DNA from: Escherichia phage AV111
Direction: 5' to 3' (one strand)
Length of the DNA stretch: 64,000 nucleotides
Sequence record: OR352941.1
Positions within the stretch are counted from its first letter, which is position 1, and each line of letters opens with the position of its first letter. The notes beneath the pieces are model-generated. The model worked only from the letters and a program-made list of their open reading frames with translations, made no database searches and was not told where the DNA came from. Made by a program: the position numbers and the translations under genes. Of this stretch, positions 6,897 through 62,776 are shown in pieces.

Positions 6897-7120
6897 TATT
6901 TTACTAAAGATTCAATATACTCGTGAAGAGTTTTAGTCGCTACTGCCCACTTATTCTGATATTCATTTTTCAGATTAGCACGAGACTGAACTAACAATCG
7001 GTCATTAGTCGGAGGCAAAGATTCTAATCGTTGAATCTGGCGCCCATAAATCATAGCCGCCATTTCAGATTCATAGATAAGCCCTTTAATGTATTCATGC
7101 TGTTCTTTAGTCATTGGCAT
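6896..7120 (-). CDS. hypothetical protein, 74 aa
   Basis: ORF track. Confidence 0.45.
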   Translation of the reverse strand: MPMTKEQHEYIKGLIYESEMAAMIYGRQIQRLESLPPTNDRLLVQSRANLKNEYQNKWAVATKTLHEYIESLVK

Positions 7121-7401
7121 TTTTCCTCTTTTAAACCACTACGATAATAACATAACATAGTCTTCTGGTCATGTATATATCTTTTTACGTCGTTTAACCA
7201 GATACGAAATTCTTGAGAGTCTTCAAATGGCATTCCAACCCACGGATTACCATCAATAACCTTTACTTGCCATTTCTGGTTATATTCGGAAATAGGCGTA
7301 GGCCATGAAGGATGTAAAGTTTCTTTAGGGCTTACTGGCACATCCTGAGTACATCCAACTAGGAGACCAATAGATAATACAGCCACAGTTAATTTAATCA
7401 T
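7111..7401 (-). CDS. putative lipoprotein, 96 aa
   Basis: N-terminal signal peptide with lipobox-like LLVGC. Confidence 0.5.
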   Translation of the reverse strand: MIKLTVAVLSIGLLVGCTQDVPVSPKETLHPSWPTPISEYNQKWQVKVIDGNPWVGMPFEDSQEFRIWLNDVKRYIHDQKTMLCYYRSGLKEEKCQ

Positions 7402-56405: not shown

Positions 56406-56603
56406 ATGTTTAAACTTCCGTCGTTAATCAACGCTATTAAAGGCAATAAAAAGAAAACTGCTATCGCTGCAATAGTTGTAGGTGGCATTATTTCATGGAA
56501 CTTCGGGATTGCACCATTGTTAGTTGCCCATGGTATTATAGTTCCTTCCGTTCCATTGGATACTGTAGTTGATTTGGCCTTTGCTATTATAGGGCTTGTT
56601 TAA
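56406..56603 (+). CDS. small hydrophobic protein, 65 aa, on the strand opposite to the surrounding early genes
   Basis: Strong SD AAGGAGA 7 nt upstream of ATG; two predicted hydrophobic segments; convergent with gene 61. Confidence 0.45.
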   Translation: MFKLPSLINAIKGNKKKTAIAAIVVGGIISWNFGIAPLLVAHGIIVPSVPLDTVVDLAFAIIGLV

Positions 56604-57622
56604 ATCTTCGAATAACGAGATAATCTCATTTTAGCATGCAACCCACTTGAAATATTCTGTTTCATATATTCTAAAATTTCTTGTGGTGTTGCATTTTCTT
56701 TCATTACCATATCATTCACATCCTTTGATCTCCATGGAGCTAGGTCCCAGAACATGACACGTTCGCCTGCATCAACTAATCGCTTCATGCGAGCTATAGT
56801 ATCCGGATGCCTAGGTTCATTATCCATTACCCATACCCGACGTTCTTTAAATGGTACCACATCTAAATCTATTGAGCCGCCTGTAATAGCGATTGCATTG
56901 GGTATGAATAAACTATCAATAGGGCCTTCCATTACCCAGACGTCTCCTTCCTTAACACGTTCAACACCATAAATTTTTGTTGCAGACTCAAACGCTTTAA
57001 TAGTGATATATTTCTGAGGAGCATCTTTGCGAAGTGCACGTCCTTGAAATGACTCGGCCTTCCCATCTTTATTAAAAATAGGAATCACTAAACGTGGTTC
57101 AGGAATCTCTTTCTTATACGTACCCGGTTGAATCTTGTTGACCAATTTGGGCCATTCTAATGTGAACCATAATCTGTTCCATGATTCTTTAGGAATACAC
57201 CGAGACTTAACATATTTCACAATAGGATGCTCTTCAGGCAACTTGTCTAGACGAGAACAAGACGGCAAAGAATTTATAGTCTTTTTCTCTGGCTCCGGTT
57301 TAGCTTCAGGAACCTTTTCAATCTTTGGTTCCATTCTAGCTTTTTCTTTACGAACTTCCATTAGATATTCGCGATAAAGCTCTTCATCATACTCTTTTAA
57401 GTATCCGGAAATTGTATTGTGGTATTGACAGTTATAGCAATGCACATTACCAGGAGTACCGCCATAATACCATCCGCGAGCTTTCATTGCATCTGTCTGG
57501 GAGTCGCCACAAACTGGACATCGAAATGTTAATTTAAATGTGCTTGAATTATTGATTTGTCTAAAACGAGGTAGGTGAGAAAACGCACGATAAGCAAATT
57601 CATTATCTATCCATTCAGCCAT
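56600..57622 (-). CDS. 61: DNA primase gp61, 340 aa
   Basis: N-terminal zinc ribbon (CPVCGDS ... CYNCQYH) and TOPRIM region matching T4 gp61. Confidence 0.9.
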   Translation of the reverse strand: MAEWIDNEFAYRAFSHLPRFRQINNSSTFKLTFRCPVCGDSQTDAMKARGWYYGGTPGNVHCYNCQYHNTISGYLKEYDEELYREYLMEVRKEKARMEPKIEKVPEAKPEPEKKTINSLPSCSRLDKLPEEHPIVKYVKSRCIPKESWNRLWFTLEWPKLVNKIQPGTYKKEIPEPRLVIPIFNKDGKAESFQGRALRKDAPQKYITIKAFESATKIYGVERVKEGDVWVMEGPIDSLFIPNAIAITGGSIDLDVVPFKERRVWVMDNEPRHPDTIARMKRLVDAGERVMFWDLAPWRSKDVNDMVMKENATPQEILEYMKQNISSGLHAKMRLSRYSKI

Positions 57623-58156: not shown

Positions 58157-58346
58157 TTACAAAGATTGCTTTGTCACCATTTATATCTGTGACTTCATAT
58201 GTAGTGCCTTCATACTGTGGAATATTCCAAATTACACCGTCATTAGCTTTTACGCTAATATGGCATTAGTGTTTTGAAACAACTTCATAATCTTCAAAAC
58301 TTGTAAAAACACTAATTTTAGAACCAGTGCAAATTGCAGTAGTCAT
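58149..58346 (-). pseudogene. small ORF interrupted by an in-frame TAA (26 codons, stop, 37 codons)
   Basis: Hand-translated MTTAICTGSKISVFTSFEDYEVVSKH*CHISVKANDGVIWNIPQYEGTTYEVTDINGDKAIFVID*; stop is plus-strand tta at 58266-58268. Confidence 0.3.
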
Positions 58347-58347
58347 T

Positions 58348-59007
58348 TTAACCTCGATTCATAAATGCATTAAATATTTGGTCATCAACAGAAATTTCTA
58401 ATTCAACTTCAATTGCTTCAGCCTTTTCTTCAGGTGGTAATTCGTATCCACACACTACAATTTTTTCATCGATATCAAAATATACAGAAGCAATACGATT
58501 AATGTTACTTTCAGTTAAGTCTAAATCAACATCAACATCTTTTTGACCTACGCTTAAAGGATAACTAATACGAGTTATTTTATTATCTTTAACAAAGAGT
58601 CCACCAACATACTCTGTGCTACGTTTGAAGTTTACACGTTTCCGAATTGAAAGATATGATACATCTTTACCGTGAGCTCGGCTCATAGGACATAATGAAT
58701 AGCTAGAATAAGAGATGTCAAATCCTACACCTTCAATATGAGCCAACGTGTCATGATTAAACCAATTATAATCATATGCCAAATCCATTATATTGTAATA
58801 TGTGAAAGGCACAGGATTAACATCATATGTTGTACCTTTAAAATCTGCCCAGGCAACGATTTCGTTATCTTTAACAATTACAAAAATTACACCAATATGG
58901 TATCCGTTATTATTTTCATTCGGCGTTATATTATAACATTGTGCATTAGGAAATTTACCATATTTAAATGGCGCGTTTTTGTGCATATAATAAATCATAT
59001 TATTCAC
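58348..59007 (-). CDS. hypothetical protein, 219 aa (61.2 position)
   Basis: ORF track. Confidence 0.5.
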   Translation of the reverse strand: MNNMIYYMHKNAPFKYGKFPNAQCYNITPNENNNGYHIGVIFVIVKDNEIVAWADFKGTTYDVNPVPFTYYNIMDLAYDYNWFNHDTLAHIEGVGFDISYSSYSLCPMSRAHGKDVSYLSIRKRVNFKRSTEYVGGLFVKDNKITRISYPLSVGQKDVDVDLDLTESNINRIASVYFDIDEKIVVCGYELPPEEKAEAIEVELEISVDDQIFNAFMNRG

Positions 59008-59293
59008 CTGTGATTTCGGTTACGATATCTTTGTTATCGAAATTAGGGTCACAATACAAAACATAGTTGTACTGCATGATACCGCCAGACTTAAGTTGTT
59101 CAACAACTTTATTAACCATATTAGGACGGTCTCGTTTAGTGATGTTCATGATATCAGAGAAGATTTGTTGTTCAACATCTTCTTGATTTGCAGTCATTGA
59201 CCACTCACAGAGGTCTTTATCATAACCTGCCGTAACTGGAGCCGGTGCACATGATACTGCAAGTAAGATTGCTGCCAATGATAACTTTTTCAT
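59000..59293 (-). CDS. sp: probable Spackle (periplasmic lysozyme inhibitor / superinfection exclusion), 97 aa
   Basis: Cleavable signal peptide MKKLSLAAILLAVSCAPA; length and position match T4 sp (61.3). Confidence 0.55.
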   Translation of the reverse strand: MKKLSLAAILLAVSCAPAPVTAGYDKDLCEWSMTANQEDVEQQIFSDIMNITKRDRPNMVNKVVEQLKSGGIMQYNYVLYCDPNFDNKDIVTEITGE

Positions 59294-59314
59294 TTTAACT
59301 CCTTAGTTGATTTG

Positions 59315-59352
59315 ATAGGACTACTATACCATAGTCCATCTATAATGTAAAC
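59315..59352 (-). promoter_or_regulatory. T4-type early promoter, -10 flanked by GGACTA / TAGTCC inverted repeat
   Basis: plus-strand gtaaac 59347-59352; tgataggactactatacc 59312-59329. Confidence 0.4.
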
Positions 59353-59356
59353 AAGT

Positions 59357-59605
59357 TTATTCTTTTTCGCGAATAATAATTACTTGTTGAGGCTGCTGAG
59401 CAGATTTCTTTTCGGCGACGATAGACCAAATTAAAGTTCCAATCCAACCAATCATCGTCCAGTTAAAGAGTAAAGATACAAAGAAGATTGCTGTTGTGCT
59501 TTTTGTGCCACGAATAAGTGCGATTACCCAAGGCAACATGTAAATGATGATTGAACCAATACCTGCGATTAAAACTGCTACTGAACTAGCTACGAATAAT
59601 TCCAT
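59357..59605 (-). CDS. small two-TM membrane protein, 82 aa; resembles the superinfection-immunity (Imm) family
   Basis: Two hydrophobic helices; FNWTMIGWIGTLIW resembles the N..GW...W signature I associate with Imm-type proteins. Confidence 0.4.
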   Translation of the reverse strand: MELFVASSVAVLIAGIGSIIIYMLPWVIALIRGTKSTTAIFFVSLLFNWTMIGWIGTLIWSIVAEKKSAQQPQQVIIIREKE

Positions 59606-59630
59606 GTTAATTTCCTCTTGATTTGTTATG

Positions 59631-59663
59631 TTTATAGTATCTTGTTTTAACTTTGGTGTAAAC
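59631..59663 (-). promoter_or_regulatory. T4-type early promoter
   Basis: plus-strand gtaaac 59658-59663; tttatagtatc 59631-59641. Confidence 0.4.
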
Positions 59664-59666
59664 CAA

Positions 59667-60035
59667 TTAATTAAATTTGTTTAAACGTTCAATACACTGG
59701 ACGTAGTTATTCGCGATTTGTTTCTGGGTAGGCTCTTTACCAGTTGTTTCAACATAGCGAATGAATGCGATTTCAGTAGCCTGTAGACAATGTTCTTTAA
59801 CGCGTTGTTCTTTTGACAATGCTACGGTATCAGAGTCACGATAACGTTGAGCATGGGCATCAGCTTGAATCATTCGATTACCTACAGTAACCGGGTCTTC
59901 CACTTCAACTTTAGGTTGGTCGTACTGTTTAACATTCGGATTGTAAATCAATTGGCCGACGTTATTAGGGATAAAGCCATGGGCACCACATCCGGTTAAT
60001 CCAAATACCATTGCTAAAGCGATTAATTTTTTCAT
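59667..60035 (-). CDS. putative lipoprotein, 122 aa
   Basis: Signal peptide with lipobox LTGC. Confidence 0.5.
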   Translation of the reverse strand: MKKLIALAMVFGLTGCGAHGFIPNNVGQLIYNPNVKQYDQPKVEVEDPVTVGNRMIQADAHAQRYRDSDTVALSKEQRVKEHCLQATEIAFIRYVETTGKEPTQKQIANNYVQCIERLNKFN

Positions 60036-60062
60036 TTCAATTTCCTCTGTAGTTGATAGAAA

Positions 60063-60093
60063 GATAGTAACACAGTATGTGGTGCTTGTAAAC
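60063..60093 (-). promoter_or_regulatory. T4-type early promoter
   Basis: plus-strand gtaaac 60088-60093; agatagtaacac 60063-60074. Confidence 0.4.
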
Positions 60094-60095
60094 AG

Positions 60096-60347
60096 CTATT
60101 TTAAACTTTTTCGAAATTTGCGTTTTTCTTGACGAATCTGTCGTTTAGTCGGACGTACAGCAAATTTAACGAAGTCTACTTTGCCGTGTGGAAACTTTTC
60201 AGATGCTTCGCAGTCCATCATTAGTTCCCATCCTTCCAGAATAAGAGCTTTCCATTGTGTAGTTGATGCAAATTCGTATGTTGATGGTTTAAACACAGTT
60301 GAATACATATTATCCTCTGAAATCAGCTTCAAAAACTTTCTCGTCAT
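60096..60347 (-). CDS. hypothetical protein, 83 aa (61.4 position)
   Basis: ORF track. Confidence 0.45.
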   Translation of the reverse strand: MTRKFLKLISEDNMYSTVFKPSTYEFASTTQWKALILEGWELMMDCEASEKFPHGKVDFVKFAVRPTKRQIRQEKRKFRKSLK

Positions 60348-60501
60348 TAATAAATGCTTTAACTAATGCATTGTTCACTTCAGCAAGTTGTACCGTAACC
60401 CACTCGATTTCTTCGCGATCACCTGATAACATGATATCTTTAGTGAACATCTCACCGCTTTTAAACCAACCGATAAAAGTAACTTTAGTTAATTTGCTCA
60501 T
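60310..60501 (-). CDS. small protein, about 63 aa; size and position fit the T4 dmd (61.5) antitoxin slot
   Basis: Start at ATG 60499-60501 overlapping the upstream stop (ATGA); identity to Dmd not verified. Confidence 0.4.
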   Translation of the reverse strand: MSKLTKVTFIGWFKSGEMFTKDIMLSGDREEIEWVTVQLAEVNNALVKAFINDEKVFEADFRG

Positions 60502-60815
60502 ATTTCCTCGCAAAAGGCCCATTCAGCGTGATAAACTGTAGCACCTTTAGTATTATTCATTTGAACTACGTCTACCGGAGAAATTACTCGATAGAGACGT
60601 GGTTCACCTCCATAAGAGCGTGCTGCTCGTCCTGCATAAATCTTTGCTAAACCGATATCTTCAGTAAAGAATACACGATCCAAGTTTTTCTTACGTCCAG
60701 TTTCAGACAGAACTCCTGTTTCTTCAGGAGGACAAAGCATGTTTTCGATGTTAGCTGAACTACTTGAACCGTGATAAAAAATCTTAAATTCTGCTTTACA
60801 ATCGATGGTTTTCAT
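60498..60815 (-). CDS. hypothetical protein, 105 aa
   Basis: ORF track. Confidence 0.5.
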   Translation of the reverse strand: MKTIDCKAEFKIFYHGSSSSANIENMLCPPEETGVLSETGRKKNLDRVFFTEDIGLAKIYAGRAARSYGGEPRLYRVISPVDVVQMNNTKGATVYHAEWAFCEEI

Positions 60816-60822
60816 TTTGTTC

Positions 60823-60870
60823 TCCAGTAGTTGATAGGTCTATAATAACACAACTACTGGAGAAGTAAAC
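60823..60870 (-). promoter_or_regulatory. T4-type early promoter with 10-bp perfect inverted repeat (TCTCCAGTAG / CTACTGGAGA) flanking the -10
   Basis: arms 60822-60831 and 60853-60862; ggtctataataac 60838-60850; gtaaac 60865-60870. Confidence 0.5.
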
Positions 60871-61245
60871 TTAAAAACGTAATTTAGATATATCCGCGTT
60901 GATTTCGTTTTGGTTTGCGTCGTATGCAATTAAACGAACCGCTTTAGATGGGTCATTCAATGCATAGAAATGATGGAACATTGCTCGAACGATATCACCA
61001 TTTACGAGTTCTACCTGGATAGGAGAACCTTTTTCGAGTTGGAAATGTTCATAAGCTTTGATGGTTCGTAGATAATCAAGTTTTTGATTTCCAGCTCCAA
61101 CTATTTGTACGATACGTTTGCCTGTGTTTTCCATATGAGATACAATAGTTTTAGGAGCAAGAATAACGTAGGTTGCCAGCGGAGAAACTACTTCAACAGT
61201 TGTGTTTTCGGTGATTGCAGTAAAAATTGCTTGAGACATATTCAT
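60871..61245 (-). CDS. hypothetical protein, 124 aa
   Basis: ORF track. Confidence 0.5.
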   Translation of the reverse strand: MNMSQAIFTAITENTTVEVVSPLATYVILAPKTIVSHMENTGKRIVQIVGAGNQKLDYLRTIKAYEHFQLEKGSPIQVELVNGDIVRAMFHHFYALNDPSKAVRLIAYDANQNEINADISKLRF

Positions 61246-61271
61246 AATGTTTTCCTCTTGGTTTGTGTAAG

Positions 61272-61304
61272 TACATCATATCATGCCTAGAGGAAGATGT
61301 AAAC
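61272..61304 (-). promoter_or_regulatory. T4-type early promoter
   Basis: plus-strand gtaaac 61299-61304; near-inverted repeat cctcttgg / cctagagg flanking the -10. Confidence 0.35.
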
Positions 61305-61333: not shown

Positions 61334-62776
61334 TTAAAATTTTAACTCATTGGCTAAGCTATCTAGGTCAGCACGTGTTGCTTTGGCTTTACCTACGCGT
61401 TCCGTACGATTCACCTCTGCCTGACGCATCTGAGCACCTGCGTTTTCATTTACTGTGTTAGGTGTGTTCATGCCTTCTTGCTCAATCTCAACCCATTTCT
61501 GATTGCCTTTACGTACACCCATCAGGAATTTATTCCACTTATTCTTATCGCCGTATCGTGATTTGATTTGTTTGATAAGTTGTTGTTCAGCTTGTGCAAG
61601 TTCTTCGGTTTCAATTACAGCCAACATGAAATCTGCCGTTGCTGGTAAACCTGCTGATTCTGCGATATCACTCATGTTCATGTCTGAAGCATCCCATGCT
61701 GCACGTCCTACTTGAGCTGCAGTCCATAGAACTGTTTCAGATTCTACTGCTAATGCACGAAGTTCTTCTGCGATAGCTTTAACTAATGTGTAGCTATTTT
61801 CAGTGTAAACTCTGATACGACAAGACCCACAAATACCTAAGTAATCAACCATGATTACAGACGGCACAAAGTTCTTCTTAAGTTTTAACTCATTAAGCAA
61901 TGCACGAAATGTATTAGCATTAGCTCCACCAGTAGGATACTGTTTAACTACTAAACGTCCTAATGTGGATTTTGAACGCCATTTTTCCATCTTGGCTTTA
62001 TATTCAGCATAAGATACGTTACCATCATCGATATCATCGAGTGATACGTCAAGCATGTTTGCATCTATACGCTTAGCACAAACTTCTTCAGCCATTTCCA
62101 TGGAAATATAAAGAACATTATGACCTGTTTGAAGATAATCTGCAGCAAGTGAACAAAGGCCTAAAGATTTACCGACGTTAACACCAGCCATTAAAACGTT
62201 TAGTGTACCTGTTTCAGCACCACCTTTGGTGATTTTATTCAAAATGTTTAATTTGAACGGGACCTTACGTGCTTTATTTAGATAAGAAAGCCAGCGTGCT
62301 TCGTAGTCTTCCATCCAGTCGTGTCCAACATAACTATCGAACGAAATTGAAAGTGCTTGACGCATAATATCAGGAATAGCTCCTACGTCAGGCATTTTCT
62401 TGTTACGTTGTTCTGGAGGTAGTTCAGCATTAGACTGAATCTCAATGATTTTGGATGTAGCATTATACATCGCTTTTTGCTGGACATATTTCTCAGTTTC
62501 TTTAACCAACCATTCGTGGTCTTCAGGAGTATCAGCCAATTTTTCAATTAGGTCTGAAGTTCCTTTATATTCGGCTTCAGTTAAAGAACTGTTATCTAAA
62601 GCCACCTTTAACGCATTGATAGATGGCATTGCATTATATTCGTTAACGTGGCTCTTTATAATTTTAAAGACATTTTTTGCCGGTCCACGCTCAAAATACT
62701 CAGAATCCATATAAGGCCAGACCTTAGAAAAATAAGCCTGGTCATATACGAGATGAGACAAAATAATTTCTACCAC
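61334..62776 (-). CDS. 41: replicative DNA helicase gp41 (DnaB-like), 480 aa
   Basis: Walker A GVNVGKS, DnaB-family C-terminal RecA-like fold; position next to 61. Confidence 0.9.
   Translation of the reverse strand: MVEIILSHLVYDQAYFSKVWPYMDSEYFERGPAKNVFKIIKSHVNEYNAMPSINALKVALDNSSLTEAEYKGTSDLIEKLADTPEDHEWLVKETEKYVQQKAMYNATSKIIEIQSNAELPPEQRNKKMPDVGAIPDIMRQALSISFDSYVGHDWMEDYEARWLSYLNKARKVPFKLNILNKITKGGAETGTLNVLMAGVNVGKSLGLCSLAADYLQTGHNVLYISMEMAEEVCAKRIDANMLDVSLDDIDDGNVSYAEYKAKMEKWRSKSTLGRLVVKQYPTGGANANTFRALLNELKLKKNFVPSVIMVDYLGICGSCRIRVYTENSYTLVKAIAEELRALAVESETVLWTAAQVGRAAWDASDMNMSDIAESAGLPATADFMLAVIETEELAQAEQQLIKQIKSRYGDKNKWNKFLMGVRKGNQKWVEIEQEGMNTPNTVNENAGAQMRQAEVNRTERVGKAKATRADLDSLANELKF

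Follow-up and report, generated by a model that had tools for sequence, protein, structure and literature searches.

Gene content of the locus

The window, by which we mean the whole 64,000-nt stretch of DNA analysed here, carries three short genes in a row on its minus strand: sp (spackle, gene 61.3; 59000-59293, 97 aa), imm (59357-59605, 82 aa) and imm.1 (59667-60035, 122 aa, DUF5481 family). The three open reading frames coincide exactly with those given in a preliminary description of this DNA, and their identification draws on the list of open reading frames, the RB69 annotation and the profile matches detailed below; the Pfam scores of all three proteins exceed the curated thresholds and lie far beyond chance. 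Directly downstream of sp follows gene 61.2 (58348-59007, minus strand), which encodes the anti-DarT factor A, AdfA (PF23813, E 5.2e-119; 61.2 in RB69). The upstream boundary of the imm.1-imm pair is formed by gene 61.4 (60096-60347, minus strand), a DUF7279 gene (PF23945, E 4.7e-20; 61.4 in RB69). Gene 61 (56600-57622) and gene 41 (61334-62776) flank the trio, as had been described, and both are placed by comparison with the annotated record of RB69, to which the DNA is 98.6% identical. The neighbourhood includes the counter-defence genes dmd and AdfA. Also close to the trio, at 60498-60815, lies RB69ORF040c, for which Pfam, NCBIfam, PADLOC and PDB sequence searches gave no match and whose single-sequence AF2 model (pLDDT 37.5) is unusable.

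Over the 3 kb that hold sp, imm and imm.1, DNA identity is 98.6% with RB69 and 99.1% with several further isolates of Mosigvirus; gene content, order, spacing and promoter sites agree, and strain-level substitutions are all that sets them apart. By these identities, the source phage is an RB69-like (Mosigvirus) T-even phage. At the homologous positions of the RB69 record (GenBank AY303349; proteins AAP75937-AAP75939) the genes have been annotated as sp, imm and imm.1 since 2003, and some 155 phage records in GenBank share this arrangement at an identity of at least 95%. Judged by homology, the trio is the known pair of T-even exclusion genes, sp and imm, together with an uncharacterised lipoprotein neighbour, imm.1. 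Both the trio and its RB69-type arrangement were already known, which makes the initial observation correct but ordinary.

The predicted exclusion proteins Sp and Imm

The product of sp begins with a hydrophobic N-terminal signal peptide, MKKLSLAAILLAVSCAPAPVTA, for which cleavage is predicted between VTA and the G that follows. It matches the T4_Spackle profile PF25676 with 145 bits (cut-off 27; E 1.1e-42; profile positions 1-96 of 96) and also phrog_1586, is 66% identical to T4 Sp, and retrieves the PDB entries 6X6O and 7CN6, 'Protein spackle', at E 1.4e-39. The preliminary description of a spackle-sized secreted protein, and the Spackle profile search that it had proposed, are borne out by these results. 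T4 Spackle (gp61.3; PDB 6X6O, 6XC0, 6XC1, 7CN6, 7CN7) likewise has 97 aa, a signal peptide, the pair Cys29-Cys81 and a position upstream of 61.2, whereas the upstream neighbour of sp is imm here and 61.4 in T4. Both cysteines of the Cys29/Cys81 disulfide pair are invariant in four genera. T4 Spackle forms a complex with the gp5 lysozyme and inhibits the tail lysozyme (PMC7677548), and the 66% identity suggests that Sp of this phage is a periplasmic inhibitor of gp5 tail lysozyme as well. Exported by way of its Sec signal peptide, it would become a small, disulfide-stapled helical protein of the periplasm and bind the gp5 lysozyme domain on the tail tip of the incoming phage, and the cell wall would stay closed.

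The 82-aa protein had been described as a two-helix, Imm-like membrane protein; two hydrophobic stretches (approximately residues 1-34 and 39-63) are indeed present, as is the segment FNWTMIGWIGTLIW that had been singled out. In the profile search suggested for it, it matches Imm_superinfect (PF14373) with 57.2 bits against a cut-off of 27.9 (E 1.5e-15; profile positions 1-42 of 42), and phrog_1039 is matched at E 1e-30; the missing profile match that had been named beforehand as grounds for refutation is therefore not observed. A sequence search of the PDB yielded no chain that matches Imm. T4 Imm (P08986; PF14373) is 65% identical to it from end to end (83 columns), the C-terminal QVIIIREKE tail is kept, and the gene is preceded by imm.1 in both phages. 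Arg32 and Trp49, the equivalents of T4 R33 and W50, are invariant in six genus-level representatives, and the T4 R33A/W50A mutants are weakened in exclusion (preprint 10.64898/2026.03.06.709160). T4 Imm has an alternative 94-aa reading according to the same preprint, whereas a longer upstream reading frame, and with it a longer N-terminal form, is impossible here.

The 2026 preprint proposes that T4 Imm keeps DNA from entering the cell by attaching to gp29, the tape-measure protein (10.64898/2026.03.06.709160; 6 Å map). By homology, the protein encoded here is probably an inner-membrane superinfection immunity protein and the orthologue of T4 Imm, and the T4 mechanism can plausibly be carried over to it on the strength of the 65% identity and of the two conserved mutation-sensitive residues. 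Located in the inner membrane, Imm would bind the helical-bundle domain of the incoming gp29, the DNA channel could then not form, and the superinfecting DNA would be left in the periplasm. HK97 gp15 and the immunity proteins against pore-forming colicins offer an analogy, drawn in the same preprint, in that they too reside in the inner membrane and stop an incoming pore- or channel-forming helical domain; they differ from Imm in being unrelated in sequence and, as far as seen, in having no linked lipoprotein.

That the 82-aa protein might instead be a generic PF14373 membrane protein with another role, for example a holin-like one, and not a working Imm, seems to us very improbable. The family does occur in many unrelated phages and prophages, and a resemblance of Imm to a holin has been stated (PMC6832632). 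The full-length identity to T4 Imm, however, equals that of typical T4/RB69 orthologue pairs, and conservation includes the functionally tested Arg and Trp as well as the C-terminal tail. Moreover, the protein is the only imm-like gene product of the genome, and its gene is still adjoined by imm.1, the neighbour that it has in T4.

The predicted lipoprotein Imm.1

The N-terminus of Imm.1, MKKLIALAMVFGLTGC, contains a canonical LTGC lipobox with Cys16, in agreement with the lipoprotein initially described, and has Gly at position +2. Under the Lol sorting rule of E. coli, a lipoprotein without Asp at +2 is sent to the outer membrane; since Imm.1 has no Asp at this position, it is predicted to be an outer-membrane lipoprotein, lipid-modified at Cys16. 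Only two strict lipobox reading frames are present in the 64-kb window, imm.1 and the o-spanin gene. Imm.1 matches DUF5481 (PF17578), the family built on T4 Imm.1, with 37.3 bits (cut-off 27; E 3.7e-9; profile positions 11-102 of 103), compared with 239 bits for T4 Imm.1 itself, and phrog_1754 at E 5e-29. A candidate identity as a YgdI/YgdR lipoprotein was rejected, as the NCBIfam match (E 0.046) is below the cut-off and covers the signal peptide only.

Identity to T4 Imm.1 amounts to 32% (E 1e-18), as against 57-86% for the neighbouring genes and approximately 65% for Imm and Sp, which suggests that Imm.1 evolves about twice as fast as the genes around it. T4 Imm.1 (NP_049661), likewise encoded directly upstream of imm, shares the lipobox, the size, the C-terminal Cys pair and the motifs YNPNVKxY and AQxYRxSD, but possesses an extra Cys pair (NCSS...KCY) that is absent here. 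Cys83 and Cys114 are invariant, and the lipobox (LTGC here, LAGC in T4) is kept in other genera. Word-indexed searches returned three proteins with Imm.1 of this phage as query and three with T4 Imm.1, and an exhaustive DUF5481 profile search found 6 proteins among 1.84 billion representatives, so that the family appears to be very narrow. One metagenomic member, P0002, has LAGF instead of the lipobox and is, given the missing lipobox Cys, probably soluble.

In an AF2 model built from a four-sequence alignment (pLDDT 59.6), residues 1-49 are disordered and three helices follow, with only the helical hairpin 75-120 reaching a pLDDT of about 85-89. A Foldseek search of the PDB with this low-confidence model reached a best E of only 2.1, and the sequence search of the PDB was empty. 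Imm.1 may be pictured as a flexible tether of approximately 30-45 residues that carries a helical domain stapled by Cys83-Cys114.

Small phage lipoproteins that shield an infected or lysogenic cell from further phage include T5 Llp, Cor and Streptococcus Ltp, and Llp blocks FhuA and hence adsorption (PMC9586334, PMC3952083). Imm.1 resembles none of them in sequence or fold, as judged from searches of Pfam, NCBIfam, PADLOC and the PDB and from Foldseek with the low-confidence model. T-even-infected cells still adsorb secondary phage, which is the trigger for lysis inhibition (reviewed in PMC6832632), and for this reason an Llp-like, receptor-blocking role of Imm.1 is unlikely.

Predicted early promoters and proposed relocation of the imm.1-imm pair

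It had been proposed that each of the three genes has its own early promoter, and a motif scan agrees with this at the level of a sequence match: each of the 61-63 nt spacers 5' of sp, imm and imm.1 contains a GTTTACA-N17-TA(T/C)(A/T)(G/A)T site and, after it, a Shine-Dalgarno sequence, which for sp is AGGAG, 5 nt before the ATG. The early-promoter-like sites lie on the minus strand at 59323-59352 for sp (GTTTACA-N17-TATAGT), at 59634-59663 for imm (GTTTACA-N17-TACTAT) and at 60064-60093 for imm.1 (GTTTACA-N17-TACTAT). Across the window, 20 such sites are found on the minus strand, which is the coding strand, and 0 on the plus strand. The published T4-type PeSL promoter consensus is TTTACW-N17-TAYWAT (PMC4122927); the imm and imm.1 sites, located in spacers on the coding strand, fit it exactly, and the sp site, with TATAGT, deviates by one mismatch and occupies the identical position in RB69 and in phage moha. 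These would be three early genes in a row, each with a predicted sigma-70-type early promoter and a ribosome-binding site, and the consensus matches point to early transcription of all three. In T4, the equivalent single site lies upstream of imm.1, the 11 nt that separate imm.1 from imm hold no further one, and imm is the second gene behind the imm.1 promoter, whereas here it has a predicted promoter of its own.

The position of the genes differs as well. The T4 order is 43>imm.1>imm>42 and 41>dmd>61.4>sp>61.2, and the preliminary description was right in placing T4 imm between 43 and 42 and sp between 61.2 and 61.4; in the present phage imm lies beside sp, with 61.4 and imm.1 on its other side. 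A location between 43 and 42 is typical of T4 imm but does not define the protein family. In Gaprivervirus, Gelderlandvirus, Dhakavirus and an unclassified Klebsiella T4-like phage, imm also stands beside gene 43, and the sp loci of Dhakavirus and Jiaodavirus contain no imm. Of 21 T4-like IMG/VR loci, sp comes within 2.5 kb of imm only in the two from Mosigvirus, which are nearly identical to each other. Just after the GutQ-like gene that follows gene 43, RB69 retains a 115-nt stretch with 71% identity to the spacer between imm and 42 of T4 (ORF054c).

From outgroup comparison and this short relic, rather than from breakpoints, a direction and a mechanism of relocation can be proposed. The ancestor, like T4 and other T4-like genera, would have carried imm and a lipoprotein gene just downstream of gene 43, which encodes DNA polymerase; in the lineage of RB69, the pair would then have left the 43/42 site and settled between 61.4 and sp, with recombination at early-promoter cassettes as the probable route, and its old slot would now be taken by a sugar-metabolism gene. 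The genomes searched for imm have one imm place per record, and so a single imm in each. Of the earlier suggestion that two extra envelope genes were inserted next to sp, the placement of imm.1 and imm beside sp is retained, but the genes are not additional: on this comparative basis they are the single imm of the phage and its partner, moved as a pair, and not extra copies.

One may ask whether the side-by-side position of sp, imm and imm.1 was itself selected, as a compact exclusion cassette that is inherited or exchanged as a unit and tuned to the tail proteins of the lineage. We consider this improbable, because the layout is confined to one lineage, in all other T4-like groups the genes are separated by 5-7 kb and are not known to have lost function, and nothing indicates that the trio has passed as a unit into other genera. 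In addition, promoter-flanked cassettes are shuffled in the early regions of T4-type phages without functional logic (PMC2839356, PMC4122927). What speaks for selection is that the trio is contiguous, with a promoter for each gene, within a counter-defence stretch (dmd, AdfA), that the arrangement is stable across the roughly 155 records, and that a complete, unexplained exclusion of T4 by RB69 has been reported (PMC2993671).

Linkage of imm with lipoprotein genes

The one new point to emerge is the linkage of imm with a lipobox gene. A lipobox reading frame within 150 nt of imm and on the same strand was found in 21 of 21 T4-like IMG/VR loci, as compared with 1 of 59 other imm-bearing contigs and a background of 45 in 3848 reading frames. 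In the present phage and in two IMG/VR Mosigvirus loci, imm.1 immediately precedes imm on the same strand at a distance of 62 nt, and in five T4-type IMG/VR loci the gap is 8 nt if the longest ORFs are taken (the T4 annotation gives 11 nt). Gaprivervirus and Dhakavirus have the lipoprotein gene downstream of imm, not upstream.

Whether these lipoproteins form one family was addressed by comparing DUF5481 with the lipoproteins encoded beside imm in Gelderlandvirus, Dhakavirus, Gaprivervirus and Klebsiella phages. A profile of the mature sequences scored 2-4 bits, and hhalign gave a probability of 0.2%, which is not significant. In an all-against-all phmmer comparison of the mature parts each group was linked internally, and the groups were bridged only by the metagenomic protein P0008 (E 4.5e-5 to 1.6e-3 at Z=100), a bridge that is also seen when its first 45 residues are matched by tblastn. 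Common ancestry of DUF5481 and the other imm-adjacent lipoproteins is likely but unproven. A fast-evolving lipobox gene that stands beside imm at all T4-like loci examined and has moved with it in this lineage suggests a possible functional partnership.

This suggestion has to be weighed against a reading to which we give slightly less than an even chance, namely that Imm.1 is unrelated to exclusion and is an envelope protein with another job that hitchhikes with imm. Such jobs could be, for instance, protection of the outer membrane or peptidoglycan, the countering of a host envelope defence, or receptor modulation, and the position beside imm would then reflect a shared transcription unit and history. 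With T4 imm.1 and imm only 11 nt apart behind one promoter, any cut-and-paste event carries both; the downstream position of the lipoprotein gene in Gaprivervirus and Dhakavirus indicates that the order is not fixed, and such a neighbour is absent beside the PF14373 genes of non-T4-like phages in 58 of 59 cases. In the literature we found neither a functional study of imm.1 nor a phenotype assigned to it, the sole mention being as a marker of the T4 group at a 50% identity threshold. Against mere hitchhiking, the linkage is kept across at least six genus-level groups despite barely detectable homology among the lipoproteins, and predicted lipoproteins are rare, with two strict candidates in 64 kb. 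The linkage also outlasted the proposed relocation, which left imm with a predicted promoter of its own, so that co-transcription would no longer be what holds imm.1 and imm together.

The functional reading of the linkage is that Imm.1-type lipoproteins are a third component of T-even exclusion, in the form of an outer-membrane-tethered periplasmic protein that works with the inner-membrane Imm. We regard this as possible though doubtful; it is compatible with the data because a lipobox gene accompanies imm at all T4-like loci examined and followed its move. Equally tentative are the modes that can be imagined for it, such as intercepting the tail tube tip or the tape-measure protein in the periplasm, or positioning and stabilising Imm. 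Plasmid-expressed T4 Imm alone, in work of Lu and Henning from 1989, is said to exclude T4 already, and on this account Imm.1 would be dispensable for basic Imm activity. Our best guess for Imm.1 itself, which we hold with little confidence, is by inference that it acts from the periplasmic side to support or broaden exclusion of the Imm type.

Implications for T-even exclusion

Altogether, the locus is very probably an RB69-type (Mosigvirus) layout of the T-even exclusion genes, with T4-like functions of Sp and Imm, a predicted lipoprotein Imm.1 and a relocated imm.1-imm pair; the functions of Sp and Imm in the source phage are ones that we transfer from experiments on T4. The trio had been viewed as a superinfection-exclusion or envelope-remodelling module, and a role in exclusion is supported for Sp and Imm, through homology to T4 experiments only, and does not extend to Imm.1.

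As found, the trio matters little, given that the genes and their layout are already present in RB69 and about 155 other genomes; the way in which Sp works is understood, and the 2026 preprint proposes a mechanism for Imm. What is useful is the comparative argument that Imm.1 deserves an experiment. If Imm.1 were a third component of exclusion, its fast divergence (32% identity between T4 and RB69) would represent lineage-specific recognition and could add to the one-sided exclusion among T-even phages. The RB69 layout, with imm and imm.1 on separate promoters, is convenient for single deletions, and with the interaction between Imm and the tape-measure protein just described, a participation of Imm.1 can now be tested simply.

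Identity of the Three Genes

The three minus-strand ORFs of the preliminary description were found exactly where it had placed them: sp (59000-59293, 97 aa), imm (59357-59605, 82 aa) and imm.1 (59667-60035, 122 aa). Their products also carry the features claimed for them, namely a typical Sec signal peptide in Sp (MKKLSLAAILLAVSCAPAPVTA/GYDK), two long hydrophobic stretches together with the Imm-like segment FNWTMIGWIGTLIW in Imm, and a canonical lipobox, Cys16 followed by Gly, at the N-terminus of the Imm.1 lipoprotein (MKKLIALAMVFGLTGC). A Shine-Dalgarno sequence lies 5-7 nt ahead of each ATG (AGGAG for sp, AGAGGA for imm and imm.1). The ORF spacers are short (61-63 nt), and each contains GTTTACA-N17-TATAGT or the same motif ending in -TACTAT. 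A strict scan of the 64-kb window for GTTTAC[AT]-N15-17-TAnnnT returned 20 promoter-like sites, all on the minus strand (20/20; plus strand, 0), five of which fall within 59.3-61.3 kb. The published promoter consensus of T4-type early-promoter cassettes (PeSLs) is TTTACW-N17-TAYWAT (PMC4122927), which the imm and imm.1 sites match in full and the sp site at all positions but one. An early promoter for each gene is therefore borne out as a consensus-like site in each spacer, and we infer promoter activity at the level of the consensus.

The Spackle and Imm_superinfect profile searches proposed earlier both gave matches above the curated thresholds (97-aa ORF to T4_Spackle, PF25676, E 1.1e-42; 82-aa ORF to Imm_superinfect, PF14373, E 1.5e-15), as did the 122-aa ORF with DUF5481 (PF17578, E 3.7e-9), a family built on T4 Imm.1, which itself scores 239 bits. 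PHROGs assignments are concordant (spackle, immunity to superinfection, and an unknown-function family for the 122-aa ORF). The DNA at 58300-61300 is 98.6% identical to RB69, and its identity to several further Mosigvirus isolates reaches 99.1%. Matches at 95% or more number about 155 among GenBank phage records, and the RB69 record of 2003 (AY303349) names sp, imm and imm.1 as well as the flanks 61.2 and 61.4. Each of the three thus belongs to a known family (Spackle, Imm or DUF5481/Imm.1), and their arrangement is likewise known and annotated. The single family-typical feature missing, the T4 map position of Imm, pertains to the genome rather than to the protein. Sp and Imm share 66% and 65% identity with their T4 counterparts and six flanking genes (61, 61.2, 61.4, dmd and 41 among them) 57-86%, against 32% for Imm.1, which makes Imm.1 a clear outlier evolving at about twice the rate of its neighbors.

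T4 imm.1 (RefSeq NC_000866.4, 26636-27013) is annotated as "iduronate sulfatase", also in HP3 and RB18. Its 125-aa product matches DUF5481 only, and the label looks like a propagated annotation error.

Relocation of the imm.1-imm Pair

As the preliminary description had it, T4 carries imm elsewhere, between 42 and 43, and sp between 61.2 and 61.4; the T4 orders are 43 > imm.1 > imm > 42 and, separately, 41 > dmd > 61.4 > sp > 61.2. The AV111 order is 41 > ORF041c > ORF040c > dmd > 61.4 > imm.1 > imm > sp > 61.2, so that the pair keeps its internal order at a new place between 61.4 and sp. No phage record with an imm match has more than one, from which it follows that this imm is the sole one of AV111; rather than two extra envelope genes beside sp, the locus has received a relocated pair. 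The earlier reading of an early envelope or exclusion module is otherwise supported, with the lipoprotein now recognized as T4 imm.1 and a known exclusion role for two of the three genes only.

Several lines indicate the direction of the move. Directly after the DNA polymerase gene 43 is where imm lies in Gaprivervirus, Gelderlandvirus, Dhakavirus and an unclassified Klebsiella T4-like phage, and it is absent from the sp loci of Dhakavirus and Jiaodavirus. Among 80 imm-bearing IMG/VR loci, 21 are T4-like; sp lies within 2.5 kb of imm in two of these, the near-identical Mosigvirus pair, and gene 43, with or without gene 42, adjoins imm in the other 19. Together these placements argue that the 43-side position is ancestral and the RB69 layout derived. 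RB69 moreover retains a relic of 115 nt with 71% identity to the T4 imm-42 spacer, labeled in its record as ORF054c, "similar to T4 42-imm intercistronic region", which supports a move away from the 43 side. A GutQ-like gene stands directly after RB69 gene 43, ahead of this relic, and the former imm.1-imm slot thus now holds a sugar-metabolism gene. The RB69 stretch from 43 to a 42-like gene (AY303349, 24047-30598, outside the window), the counterpart of the T4 interval with imm.1-imm, has about 10 ORFs, GutQ-like and mannose-1-P guanylyltransferase-like ones included, besides the 115-nt relic.

T4 has one promoter-like site before imm.1, with imm following 11 nt on, and AV111 imm has its own site. 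Shuffling of genes by such early-promoter cassettes has been documented for T4-type early regions (PMC2839356; PMC4122927) and would be the most likely route of the move.

Neighboring Genes

The trio is embedded among counter-defense genes. Directly downstream of sp lies 61.2, encoding the anti-DarT factor AdfA (58348-59007, minus strand; PF23813, E 5e-119), and two genes upstream of imm.1 lies dmd, the antitoxin against RnlA/LsoA (60310-60522, minus; PF17587, E 2e-21). Between 41 and dmd, the conserved RB69ORF040c homologue (60498-60815, minus, 105 aa, phrog_2110) is also present in Dhakavirus and absent from T4. Its N-terminal FYHGSSS and later (V/I)(F/Y)FT...Y...G...(L/I)Y.V..P are reminiscent of Arr-type mini ADP-ribosyltransferases; no match came from Pfam, NCBIfam, PADLOC or a PDB sequence search, and its single-sequence AF2 model is unusable (pLDDT 37.5). 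The RB69ORF029w homologue (56406-56603, plus strand), a very hydrophobic 65-aa protein annotated as hypothetical in RB69, abuts the end of gene 61 on the strand opposite to all its neighbors.

Sp and Imm

T4 Spackle is a periplasmic, helical protein of 75 residues with a Cys29-Cys81 disulfide that binds and inhibits the lysozyme domain of the tail spike protein gp5 (PMC7677548). The window Sp matches Spackle PDB chains (E 1.4e-39) and keeps both cysteines, and by homology it would inhibit gp5 lysozyme likewise. Its residues 1-15 (59249-59293), within the signal peptide, end in a Ser14-Cys15 that is invariant in all four genera compared and lipobox-like: AVSC in the window, LASC in T4, VSSC and VASC in the remaining two (Jiaodavirus and Dhakavirus), down to 46% identity. 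Single-residue conservation is unusual in signal peptides. The motif precedes the AxA sequence at residue 22 where cleavage is accepted to occur, mature Sp being residues 23-97 in the literature; some of the Sp made might be a lipoprotein.

According to a 2026 preprint (10.64898/2026.03.06.709160), T4 Imm binds gp29, the tape-measure protein, at its helical-bundle domain and co-purifies with that domain, and exclusion is weaker in the mutants R33A and W50A. In the model put forward there, Imm keeps the DNA conduit through the inner membrane from forming, in the way that pore domains are blocked by colicin immunity proteins. The counterparts of R33 and W50, Arg32 and Trp49, do not vary among six aligned genus-level representatives, and by homology with T4 the window Imm would act in exclusion likewise. 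The window imm frame allows no N-terminal extension, which agrees with the finding that the alternative 94-residue form of T4 Imm adds nothing to the interface (10.64898/2026.03.06.709160).

Imm.1 and Its Linkage to imm

A literature search found no study of Imm.1; a comparative paper names it among the markers of the T4 group, using a threshold of 50% identity, with an exclusion role that "remains to be proven" (PMC5885020). Conserved features are the motifs YNPNVKxY and AQxYRxSD and an invariant cysteine pair (83 and 114). The lipobox has no Asp at +2, for which the E. coli Lol rule predicts outer-membrane sorting. The AF2 model, of low overall confidence (pLDDT 59.6) and confident at residues 75-120 only, has residues 1-49 disordered and then three helices. 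A PDB search returned nothing similar, and a set of 1.84 billion proteins contains just six representatives of this tiny family. P0002, a metagenomic homologue (122 aa, 46% identical to the window protein), has a signal peptide ending in LAGF-SAHA in place of the lipobox Cys, keeps T4's extra Cys pair and is probably a soluble periplasmic variant.

In all 21 T4-like IMG/VR loci, which are kin by descent and not 21 independent trials, imm has a same-strand lipobox ORF no more than 150 nt away. So it does in GenBank representatives of Tequatrovirus, Mosigvirus, Gelderlandvirus, Gaprivervirus, Dhakavirus and a Klebsiella phage, and the side of imm on which this ORF stands, upstream or downstream, differs among them. 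The same holds for one of 59 non-T4-like imm-bearing contigs, against a background of 45 lipobox ORFs in 3848 across all these loci. The window has one other strict lipobox ORF, an Rz-like o-spanin (7111-7401, minus, 96 aa, LVGC; phrog_812, E 1e-44). All imm-adjacent lipoproteins have a lipobox, 120-170 aa and two alignable cysteines. By similarity they form two internally linked groups joined solely through one metagenomic member (E 4.5e-5), and profile-profile comparison of the two groups was not significant; statistical evidence for one family is weak.

Functional coupling of the Imm.1-type lipoprotein with Imm is a tentative idea, suggested by a pairing that outlasts extreme divergence, a change of order and a relocation after which imm has its own promoter. 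Lu and Henning reportedly found in 1989 that plasmid-borne T4 Imm alone is enough for exclusion, so any role of Imm.1 would be auxiliary or in specificity. With the trio and its arrangement already known, the lipoprotein that travels with imm is the one new point, and its main value is a testable lead on Imm.1.
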